From: Podarcis pityusensis
Taxonomy: Eukaryota
NCBI GenBank assembly: GCA_964106645.2
Contig: OZ067049.1
Direction: 5' to 3' (one strand)
DNA: 64,000 bases
The translations under genes and the position numbers were made by a program. A model generated the notes under the pieces. It did not search any database, had not been told where the DNA came from, and was given only the letters and a program-made list of their open reading frames with translations. Positions 50,766 to 53,285 of this stretch are shown here, in pieces (within the stretch, counting starts at the first letter, position 1; each line of letters opens with the position of its first letter).

Positions 50766-53285
50766 ACCTCCCCCAAAAGCATCAATAGGCAAAACATGAT
50801 CCAGAGAAGAAAACAAACAGTTGTTATACATATAACAGTCCCCTGTTGTTTCAGTTCCACCCTTGGAACTTCCCACCACTGGTTTCACCAGTGTACCTCT
50901 CTGGTTGTCTGGCTTCCAAGGAATGAGTGCCTCTGCATTACCTTGGCTTGCTACTCTCTGTTGTGTCTTTGTCTCTGACTTAGACACTGCTTTAACCTGC
51001 TTTGAGTTGTTAACAATAGCAACACATGCAACAGCTGCGTTAGCAAACTCTTTTGAGTACCTCTTTGGTGGTACACCCTTTGTAACTCTCTCAGACCTGC
51101 GTATGAGGTTCTGATCCTCTGTGCTCACTGGTTCAACCTCTGGACTTTGTTGAGAACCAGTAGCAATCAGTGGTTCTTCCTTCACCTGTGAAGGTCTATC
51201 CATTGTGTGAGATTTCCTCTCAATGACTGTTACAACTGAACTCTCTGAGCTATCACTGTCATCATCATCAGTACCACTGTAATCTGTGACATCAGAAAAA
51301 TCATCATCATCATCTGAATTGTCACCTGTGGGAAATGTCTGTACTACCCGCTCTTGCTCTGGAGCACTCTCTAGGAACTTTGTGAGAATCACTTGACCAG
51401 ATTCAGACAAAATTACTCTGTAGAGACCCTTTTCATATCCCACAAAAATGCCTCTGGCATTCTTTACTCCACCTGGAGCTTCTGTTCTCACATGAGACCC
51501 GAAAACCTTAAAATAGGCAACAGAAGGTTTTCTGTTGAACAGCTTCTCAAAAGGAGAACATCCCAACTTTGTTGAGACCTTTCTCAACCACACATGAAGA
51601 TAGGACGCTAGAGATTCGGCCCAATAGTCATGTGGCAAATGTGAACTCAGCAATTGCGCATTCATCCCCTTTTGCAATTCTTTGTTCACTCTAACACAGA
51701 CCCCCCTGTTCCACGCTTCTTTCGAAACAGCAACTTTGTGGTCTATCCCTTTTCCATCCAGGAACTTCTGAAACTTCTGTAACAGAAAAACTTGTTTGTC
51801 ATCTGTGAAAAGACAATCAATGTTAGCATCATGCATACTTTTAACCTTGTCACAAAACTCCTGAAACTTTTCTAAAGTTTCTTGCGGTTTTTCCATCAAA
51901 TAAACCCAAGAATAATTAGTGAAACAATCCACACACAAAAGGTAATACTTTGCACTGCCTCTAGATGGTTCTAGAGGACCAATCACATCAGCATACACCC
52001 GCTGAAATGCTCTGTCGACGTTCTTGGTCAGCTTCCTGGTGCTCACACTGGTCACACCTGCAAGAGAGATTTCGTTAGAAACAGAAGAATTACATTTCAT
52101 GTAATCACTTTGATCAAAAGTCAACAAATACAGTCCATCTTTCTCTTTGGCAGTAAGAAACAGTTCTCCATCTTTGTAGATCTTGCAGCTTTTAGCATCA
52201 TAGGACAGTTTCAGTCCTTTCTTTGCAATCTGCGACACGCTCAGCAGATTAAATCTCAGTTCTGGAACCAGGTAAACATCACTTATAGTCAAGTTCAGAC
52301 TCTCAAGATACACAGTCCCAATTCCAGTCGCTTCCAACTCTTGAGCGTTGGCCTGTTTCACAGCGAAGCTTTGCTTCTTCAACGTCGTAAACAGTTGTCT
52401 GTGCGGGCACATATGAACCGTTGCGCCCGTGTCAATTATGAACGAGTTCCCAACACCTGGCGTGGTTCCTTTCGCCATCATAGCCTTTGCAGGTTTCACC
52501 TGGCACTTGGAACGGCTTTTGCCTGACGCCTCAGGCTTCGTAGAGCTGCTCTTTGCTCCTCTTGACTGGCGCGGCTTCTTACAGTTTCGCTGTAGATGCC
52601 CAGTCTGTCCACAATTGTAGCATCGGACAGCACTCAATGCTACTCCATGCTTTCCAGTAGATTCATCAGTGGGGAGATTAGAACTCTGTTCTTCCCTCCC
52701 CCTATCTTTCACTTCCAGTGCAGCAAGTCTGTCGTGTTCATTCAGGACCACAGCACACACTCTCTCCGCGGTCAGCTGCGCGGCCGGTAGGGAACCAAGC
52801 TGACTGGCAACAACCTTGTAGGTGCGGTTAAGGCTGTTTATCATCATGAAGCAAAACACTTCCTCCTGAAGACGGAAATTGCGTTCCACCATCTGTTGAC
52901 GCAGAAACTTCATTTCTGTCAGGTGCGCTTGAACATCTCCATCAGGCGCAAGTCTCAGATTGGTCAATTTCTCAAAATACAGCAACGCTGAAGAACCAGC
53001 ATCTCTCTGATGCGTTGTACGCAGCGTGTCCCAAACCTCTTTCGCATTTTCTAAATGCTGAACATGCACCAACTGATCATCTGAGACACACAGAATTATA
53101 GCAGTCCTGGCCCTTACATTCTGTGACTCCCAACCTCTGGTTGGTGCTGCAGGGATGGGGTTTTCAATTACATCAAAAAGCCTCTGATTCTGCAGCAGGG
53201 CCTTCATCTTTACAGACCAAGATGAATAATTGTCATTGGTTAAGGGAGGTGGGTAAGGCAGACCTCCCCCTTTCTTGGCATCCAT
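50631..53285 (-). CDS. Copia polyprotein, 884 aa: Gag (UBN2-like), CCHC knuckle, aspartic protease, degenerate integrase; no RT/RNase H
   Basis: Gag start LTNDNYSSWSVKMKALL. Knuckle CYNCGQTGHLQRNC at 52581-52622. Protease FIIDTGATVHM with DTG at 52425-52433. Integrase core VYADVIGP...LFTDD...RGVCVRVNK, followed by KVFGS / GIFVGY and RRSER. No YVDD motif. The stop codon lies inside the 3' LTR. Confidence 0.93.
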   Translation of the reverse strand: MDAKKGGGLPYPPPLTNDNYSSWSVKMKALLQNQRLFDVIENPIPAAPTRGWESQNVRARTAIILCVSDDQLVHVQHLENAKEVWDTLRTTHQRDAGSSALLYFEKLTNLRLAPDGDVQAHLTEMKFLRQQMVERNFRLQEEVFCFMMINSLNRTYKVVASQLGSLPAAQLTAERVCAVVLNEHDRLAALEVKDRGREEQSSNLPTDESTGKHGVALSAVRCYNCGQTGHLQRNCKKPRQSRGAKSSSTKPEASGKSRSKCQVKPAKAMMAKGTTPGVGNSFIIDTGATVHMCPHRQLFTTLKKQSFAVKQANAQELEATGIGTVYLESLNLTISDVYLVPELRFNLLSVSQIAKKGLKLSYDAKSCKIYKDGELFLTAKEKDGLYLLTFDQSDYMKCNSSVSNEISLAGVTSVSTRKLTKNVDRAFQRVYADVIGPLEPSRGSAKYYLLCVDCFTNYSWVYLMEKPQETLEKFQEFCDKVKSMHDANIDCLFTDDKQVFLLQKFQKFLDGKGIDHKVAVSKEAWNRGVCVRVNKELQKGMNAQLLSSHLPHDYWAESLASYLHVWLRKVSTKLGCSPFEKLFNRKPSVAYFKVFGSHVRTEAPGGVKNARGIFVGYEKGLYRVILSESGQVILTKFLESAPEQERVVQTFPTGDNSDDDDDFSDVTDYSGTDDDDSDSSESSVVTVIERKSHTMDRPSQVKEEPLIATGSQQSPEVEPVSTEDQNLIRRSERVTKGVPPKRYSKEFANAAVACVAIVNNSKQVKAVSKSETKTQQRVASQGNAEALIPWKPDNQRGTLVKPVVGSSKGGTETTGDCYMYNNCLFSSLDHVLPIDAFGGGCQEKAARQKPAPDGWNAKQCRCTVGEKVEPILCTEHRMLAQCVI
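50766..50778 (-). other. Polypurine tract
   Basis: The minus strand reads TTTTGGGGGAGGT immediately before TGTCAGG, the start of the 3' LTR. Confidence 0.8.

Follow-up and report, generated by a model that had tools for sequence, protein, structure and literature searches.

A disabled, probably constrained integrase in a non-autonomous Ty1/copia retrotransposon of lacertid lizards

Introduction

Among the described non-autonomous long terminal repeat (LTR) retrotransposons, the mouse element IAP 1delta1 carries an in-frame deletion that creates a gag-pol fusion open reading frame (ORF) and is mobilised by a helper (accessible part of PMC6466679), and the wheat families RLG_Quinta and RLG_Sabrina are long-lived lineages that derive from a helper and have an intact Gag ORF (accessible part of PMC11302176). 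Here, we describe a lizard element of the same Gag-keeping, non-autonomous class, a recent insertion without a reverse transcriptase (RT) of its own and with a constrained, intact Gag ORF. It is a complete Ty1/copia LTR retrotransposon of 4,041 bp located at 50298..54338 on the minus strand of a 64,000-nucleotide stretch of the Podarcis pityusensis genome (contig OZ067049.1; hereafter, the window); all features of the element given below are on this strand. The single ORF of the element, P0001 (884 aa; 50631..53285), encodes an integrase that has lost its active site.

As far as the consulted portions of the two sources go, IAP 1delta1 is retrovirus-derived and recent, and the wheat families are Gypsy elements without RT and integrase coding sequences, whereas the lizard element has kept its protease and the whole core of a disabled integrase, with the active site lost and the domain constrained out to a divergence of 42% identity. 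The element resembles autonomous squamate Ty1/copia retrotransposons, of which the nearest intact ones found are P0188 and also P0009, in the Gag-protease-integrase order, the single ORF and an RRSER...PPKR motif, but, unlike P0188-type relatives, has no RT, no HHCC zinc finger and no catalytic Glu, and retains only a remnant of RNase H. Its integrase core is predicted to have the same fold as those of Ty1 and retroviruses, for which roles independent of the DDE triad, namely, in reverse transcription, RNA binding and particle assembly, are reported in the available parts of PMC8487063 and PMC9144474. Those integrases are also catalytically active and possess the HHCC domain, in contrast to the lizard element, which has kept the non-catalytic part alone. 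Additional background, seen in part, is found in PMC4131045, PMC7116210, PMC4974528 and PMC4657000.

Loss of the integrase active site

The catalytic core (51576..52013) retains the two catalytic Asps, D433 (GAT, 51987-51989) and D495 (GAT, 51801-51803), the codons of which were verified, and has Val531 (GTT, 51693-51695) in place of the catalytic Glu, 36 codons past D495 and two substitutions away from either Glu codon. All this agrees with the original prediction, which had been made from the letters of the window and portrayed the integrase as disarmed but kept in frame. In a phmmer alignment with the Ty1 integrase 7z0h_W (E 2e-8), RGVCVRVNK lies opposite HGVAERLNR, and the stretch from the second Asp to the Glu is ungapped. 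The Glu column of 175 aligned integrase regions contains Glu in 168 rows, Lys in 3 and Val in 4, and all 4 Val rows are P0001 and its relatives. The D,D(35)E triad of P0001 accordingly reads D, D, V, which is not the triad of an active DDE integrase. A sequencing or assembly artefact was considered as an explanation of Val531 and was ruled out, the same Val being present in independent records.

The region upstream of the core (52014..52109) is a shortened remnant of the integrase N-terminus, about 60 aa shorter than in intact relatives, from which the HHCC finger was deleted in frame. The predicted absence of the finger is borne out: the segment from residue 358 to D433 lacks His altogether and contains just two Cys (C367 and C398), and the approximately 60 residues that are missing compared with intact relatives include both His. 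C398 (YMKC) is what is left of the CxxC pair, corresponding to its first Cys. In the profile check that had been suggested for this region, P0001 has no Pfam gag_pre-integrs match, and the intact P0009 (E 0.0025) and P0188 (E 0.00045) are matched below the cut-off. The frame is open as claimed, with no stops in 884 codons, whereas the two alternative frames contain 58 and 64. The departure from the DNGGEY and PQQN motifs, which had been listed among the signs of decay, is real in P0001, but is in part ancestral (Trp, Phe), because the intact relatives already read DKGGEF or DRGGEF and PRSPWQNG. The core is followed by a post-core helix and an SH3-like C-terminal domain (51351..51575; SH3_retrovirus E 3.7e-4, below the cut-off). 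In the Pfam analysis of P0001, the Copia Gag, CCHC and protease barrel were recognised, and the rve and SH3 matches were weak.

An old loss common to divergent lineages

The closest named proteins come from Podarcis lilfordi and are 93-95% identical to P0001 over the integrase region. The sister copies that we checked in this species (P0002, P0003/P0005 and P0007) read RGVCVKVNK, with Val rather than Glu. Far more distant is P0008 of Zootoca vivipara (869 aa; 42% identical to P0001), which has in common with P0001 the Val, the HHCC deletion and the RT deletion; its triad consists of Gly, Asn and Val, so that both Asps are lost. The HHCC deletion is common to P0001, P0007 and P0008, and the RT deletion to P0001, P0002 and P0008. 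Two members of the same lineage, P0009 (845 aa) and P0188 (1,338 aa, with an RT of the RVT_2 family), have an intact HHCC finger and an intact D,D,E triad; P0001 is 36-43% identical to these intact relatives across Gag, protease and integrase, and P0001, P0009 and P0188 belong to one clade with 100% support.

The integrase tree, built from 28 rows that comprise the lineage and the 22 of 162 active outgroups nearest P0009, places the four dead rows in one clade (100/99) that is sister to P0009 (100/100). The Gag tree (13 rows) also joins P0001 with P0008 (97/90), and the protease tree leaves the two unresolved. Both dead lineages agree with each other and differ from P0009 at 48 sites, and at 19 of these, their residue is present in fewer than 5% of the 162 active integrases. 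The original prediction had taken the catalytic loss to be old, and this stands, given that the loss is common to the sister copies and to the 42%-identical Zootoca element. On the strength of these sequence comparisons, the loss of the finger and of the catalytic Glu is an old, single event in the ancestor of the dead lineages. We considered and dropped the notion that P0009 represents an RT-less stage with an intact integrase; P0009 may be a truncated ORF of an autonomous lineage and was not used to order the losses, because P0188 is 67% identical to it and complete.

That the integrase is still active by way of another acidic residue, such as E523 in the SKEAW motif, has next to no likelihood, notwithstanding the retention of both Asps in P0001 and in the P. 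lilfordi copies. E523, which had been put forward as a substitute acid, is not conserved, being replaced by Ala in P0008 and aligned to Ser in the active relatives; furthermore, both Asps are lost in P0008, and the finger is gone together with most of the invariant polar residues.

The search for relatives has evident bounds: the profile search missed P0008 and P0009, both members of its own alignment, and hence was not exhaustive. No related loci were found in viral contigs scanned with the family alignment or in metagenome contigs scanned with P0001 and with P0009.

Probable constraint on the dead domain

In the comparison of P0001 with P0008, 74 of the 146 core positions are identical (51%), compared with 42% in Gag, 47% in the protease and 14-17% in three linkers, and the core and the SH3-like domain align at 220 of 221 positions. 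The ex-finger linker that adjoins the core has the same ancestry as the core, because it carries the common deletion, and is identical at 5 of 30 positions (17%; Fisher p = 6e-4 versus the core). Helix 4 retains 14 identical residues of 22 between the dead lineages, including newly fixed common residues. For active pairs at a similar Gag distance (identity 33-52%; 121 of the 1,596 pairs from 57 full-length active elements), the median core identity is 54%.

On a fixed 14-taxon tree, the stem of the dead clade has an integrase to Gag plus protease branch-length ratio of 4.5; for the branches that separate the dead lineages, the ratio is 1.0 (5-95% range 0.75-1.42), compared with 0.45 for close active relatives and 0.74 for other active elements; the stem ratio exceeds the post-split ratio in all 40 resamples. 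Neutral evolution of the domain, the outcome that would speak against the original prediction, is not what these values indicate, the rate after the loss being far below that of the stem branch. At the level of family copies, we analysed the variants picked as best supported (40 of the 527 variant rows and 12 of the 66 indels). Silent changes account for 15 of 21 in the whole ORF and for 6 of 9 in the integrase region, with silent sites comprising 22% of the ORF (for the integrase region, p 0.005, or p 0.04 assuming 33%), and 11 of the 12 indels fall outside the ORF, the only one inside being 3 nt long.

Conservation could be only apparent if the integrase had a younger ancestor than Gag, through recombination, or if it reflected a signal in the RNA, with the protein decaying neutrally. 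The borderline results of the conservative-substitution tests in the core and the restriction of the deep comparison to the protein level are compatible with such decay. However, the Gag and integrase trees agree, the ex-finger linker is 17% identical next to a 51% identical core despite their common ancestry, and the listed variants are mostly silent third-position changes, unlike those expected of neutral change or of RNA-level constraint. Thus, we consider neutral decay quite improbable. The integrase feature is real, family-wide and old, and probably constrained; that the domain is under real constraint at the protein level, weaker than in the active enzyme, appears to us very likely.

Several results weigh against a strong version of this claim and against a dedicated function of the domain. 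Compared with a neutral codon model set to the same identity as observed, the substitutions in the core and the SH3-like domain are weakly conservative (BLOSUM z 1.4-2.0, compared with 3.9-4.2 in Gag and 3.1-3.2 in the protease), and the hydrophobic class is retained in the dead core no better than expected (z 0.6-1.0). After the split, the dead domain evolved, relative to Gag plus protease, about twice as fast as that of close active relatives (1.0 versus 0.45; faster in all 40 resamples). How conserved a site is in active integrases is a weak predictor of identity between the two dead proteins (40%, 49% and 57% by tertile; p 0.03-0.06). Both dead proteins keep 10 of the 15 Gly, Pro or hydrophobic residues and 4 of the 14 charged or polar ones among the 29 near-invariant positions, and this contrast between structural and polar retention is not significant (p 0.066). 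Finally, the deep comparison amounts to one protein pair, P0001 and P0008, the latter available at the protein level only, and the listed variants are a selected, non-independent subset.

With a constraint weaker than that on active relatives, the upkeep of a foldable, fully translated polyprotein is a serious rival explanation. The dead integrase could be a passive passenger that has no partner of its own and is kept because the ORF has to remain open up to the 3' LTR for full translation and RNA stability, and because misfolding would harm Gag and the protease. Apart from the weakly conservative substitutions and the twofold relaxation of the rate, such a passenger status is suggested by the continued decay in the Zootoca element, by the ORFs of P0001 and, so it appears, of P0002 and P0008 that extend into the LTR, and by the former RT and RNase H segment, which is also 43% identical between the dead lineages and has changed in a mildly conservative manner (z 2.0-2.4). 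What it does not readily explain is why the core was retained at all and aligns almost without gaps, when it could have been deleted as well, given that in-frame deletions removed the HHCC finger and about 300 codons of RT; the newly fixed common residues in helix 4 also fit poorly. We regard the passenger explanation, the main rival, as possible, if not favoured.

A putative assembly module

The reading that we prefer, at a probability of roughly 0.45, is that selection has preserved the disabled core because, in this parasitic element, it functions as an assembly module that requires no catalysis. Under this scenario, which builds on analogy with better-studied elements, the RNA of the element would be translated into a Gag-protease-dead integrase polyprotein that assembles, in cis, with the RNA that encodes it and, in addition, with Gag-Pol from an autonomous P0188-like relative, the helper that would supply the RT and the active integrase. 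Through the oligomerisation surface of the dead core and the SH3-like domain, the polyprotein would dimerise more readily and would attract or retain the helper Pol in particles containing the RNA of the element. The domain itself would neither cut nor join DNA. A basic motif, RRSER...PPKRY, located together with an acidic tail at 51030..51350 and 60-70% identical among dead and intact relatives, may assist the RT or nuclear import. Precedents for parts of this scheme come from partially available sources: according to a review, the gag-pol fusion product of IAP 1delta1 is cis-acting (PMC6466679), the C-terminus of the Ty1 integrase is required for reverse transcription (PMC8487063), and oligomerisation of the HIV-1 integrase has, independently of catalysis, a regulatory effect on protease activity and on particle assembly (PMC9144474).

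The same source on HIV-1, as far as it was available, also supplies an argument against the assembly role, because loss of the HHCC domain impairs multimerisation and particle assembly (PMC9144474), and this weakens the case for a finger-less domain as an assembly module. The transcript level of the family is low, and the reads derive from sister copies, as detailed below, which likewise counts against the scheme. A more specific version, in which a parasitic lineage of lacertids turned the integrase into a dedicated pseudo-enzyme, with a new surface that formed after the burst of change and captures the helper integrase and RT so that the RNA of the element itself is prioritised in the particle, is possible but less likely than not.

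Other roles that had been proposed for the domain fare worse. Binding of cDNA is weakened as a candidate, because 10 of the 14 conserved charged or polar positions, among them K467, E499, N527, R542 and N567, are not kept in both dead proteins; the lost residues are presumably those that contact DNA in integrase structures. The net charge of the core, +1 to +3, does not differ from the active-integrase median of +3, so its basic character was not lost across the board. If the domain served to compete with and inhibit the autonomous helper in a dominant-negative manner, or as a restriction factor selected by the host, it might be expected to lose catalytic and DNA-facing residues and to keep the core, as is the case here, and integrases act as multimers (PMC9144474, accessible part). 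Nevertheless, interference is a poor fit for an element that is multi-copy, has identical LTRs and relies on an active helper integrase, and there is no sign of a single fixed orthologous host locus; we consider it improbable. Nor does the element look like a domesticated host gene, for which a single orthologous copy and decayed LTRs would be expected, given the identical LTRs, the target site duplication (TSD) and the multiple copies.

Structure prediction contributes little to the choice. With a 75-row family alignment, the modelled integrase reached a predicted local distance difference test (pLDDT) score of 88.8 and matched the PFV integrase with E 3e-14, but this high confidence is due to the active relatives of which the alignment consists; from the five dead-lineage rows alone, the pLDDT was 46. 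A predicted complex between the dead and P0009 cores scored 0.00 and was counted neither way. In the ESM Atlas, only generic rve/SH3 clusters were found.

Anatomy and insertion of the element

The element has the typical Ty1/copia anatomy, with TG...CA LTRs, a 5-bp TSD, a primer binding site (PBS)-like motif and a polypurine tract. The 5' LTR (53881..54338) is 458 bp long, with TG...CA ends, and the 3' LTR (50298..50765) is 468 bp long. The two LTRs show no substitutions across 458 sites and differ by one 10-nt tandem duplication, the 3' LTR being the longer copy. The TSD, CTATA, is present upstream (54339..54343) and downstream (50293..50297). The PBS-like TGG motif (53871..53878), placed on the basis of general LTR-element anatomy, lies 2 nt past the 5' LTR, and the polypurine tract (50766..50774) adjoins the 3' LTR.

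The ORF starts with a copia-type Gag (52725..53243; Retrotran_gag_2, DUF4219, Pfam E 1.6e-22), followed by an intact CCHC zinc knuckle (52575..52625; E 9e-7) and an aspartic protease region (52110..52442; Pol_BBD E 3.6e-20) in which the DTG motif is kept (D285 at 52431-52433). Downstream of the integrase and the acidic tail is the remnant of the RT/RNase H region (50778..51029). The domain order, with copia Gag and protease and the RNase H remnant 3' of the integrase, is that of Ty1/copia elements. The RNase H remnant proper is a short piece of 16 codons (50811-50858) that is in frame and is recognisable also in P0002 and P0008. By Pfam, RVT_2 and any other RT domain are absent from P0001, and no RT was found in any frame of the element. 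When P0188 was compared with the element using tblastn, only its residues 23-819 and 1201-1216 were covered (the latter, the RNase H piece, weakly, with E 0.023), and the RT domain was wholly uncovered. The element thus has no intact RT and RNase H of the kind that characterises autonomous retrotransposons. The ORF reads across the polypurine tract into the 3' LTR (50631-50774), where its final 44 codons lie. By protein sequence, P0002 and P0008 end likewise, but their LTR-derived tails are different, so the LTRs vary among subfamilies while the read-through is kept.

The element is a recently inserted non-autonomous Ty1/copia retrotransposon. Its recent mobility without an RT of its own follows from the absence of substitutions between the LTRs and the 5-bp TSD, on the one hand, and the lack of a detectable RT, on the other hand. 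Neither a second copy nor a solo LTR of the element was found within the 64-kb window. About 800 bp downstream of the element, at 49395-49488 (minus strand), there is a possible 94-nt host coding exon, bounded by AG...GT and containing a Gln-rich open frame; if this is a host exon, the element would be intronic, on the strand of the host gene. Elsewhere in the window, there are long interspersed element (LINE)-like RT fragments and short repeats at 39369-42452 (minus strand), 56474-57121 (plus strand), 5967-6072, 12259-12394 and 17793-17907; the short repeats, we take it, resemble squamate short interspersed elements.

Copies and transcription

Parts of the window were found in 20 sequencing runs from ten studies with five organism labels. 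In two DNA runs, 1,828 and 3,740 contigs align to it, and the summed word depth, which is not a copy number, ranges from thousands to more than 100,000 in the element, compared with 29-230 in the right flank. The element family is multi-copy. The left flank has no coverage in either DNA run. A contig of run X2 (depth 28.7, no differences) covers 54309-54900 and extends from the flank into the 5' LTR by 30 nt, one letter short of the bridging threshold; this suggests that the same insertion is present in that run. Loose read ends from RNA and DNA runs at 50604-50789, 53213-53305 and 54177 suggest that there are additional subfamilies that differ in their LTRs and leader sequences.

In the RNA run X23, 320 of the 12.8 million records align to the window, mostly at 90-99% similarity, and the first mates are mainly on the plus strand in 23 of the 24 covered bins. 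If the library is conventionally stranded, this bias is compatible with sister copies being transcribed in the sense direction at a low level. The single-cell run X21 showed no strand pattern like that of X23.

Implications for annotation and integrase biology

According to the available part of PMC11889832, the Mtanga clade is the only Copia clade reported in Lepidosauria, and 1,004 Copia sequences were counted in P. muralis and 304 in Z. vivipara, with classification by RT and RNase H. Because the classification uses these domains, RT-based Copia surveys are likely to miss this abundant family. Membership of the element in Mtanga is suggested by the host group, the clade itself being defined on RT and RNase H, which the element has mostly lost. 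In the literature consulted, which did not cover Repbase and Dfam, we found no account of the family or of any non-autonomous element with a dead integrase conserved over a long time; the family may be present in repeat libraries as an unremarked entry. Public gene models call family copies (P0002, P0008 and P0010) vomeronasal type-2 receptor (V2R) or FAM168A isoforms, and P0010 of P. muralis fuses Gag and protease pieces to a V2R model. Gene annotation thus mislabels copies of this family.

Known non-autonomous LTR elements keep cis signals or Gag only. An element that dropped the RT and the finger but kept a disarmed core out to a divergence of 42% identity amounts to a natural separation-of-function experiment, and the lineage isolates the non-catalytic work of the integrase, which so far has been studied mainly through laboratory mutants of HIV-1 and Ty1. 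If the assembly role holds true, this lineage would show a route by which parasitic elements exploit their helpers.

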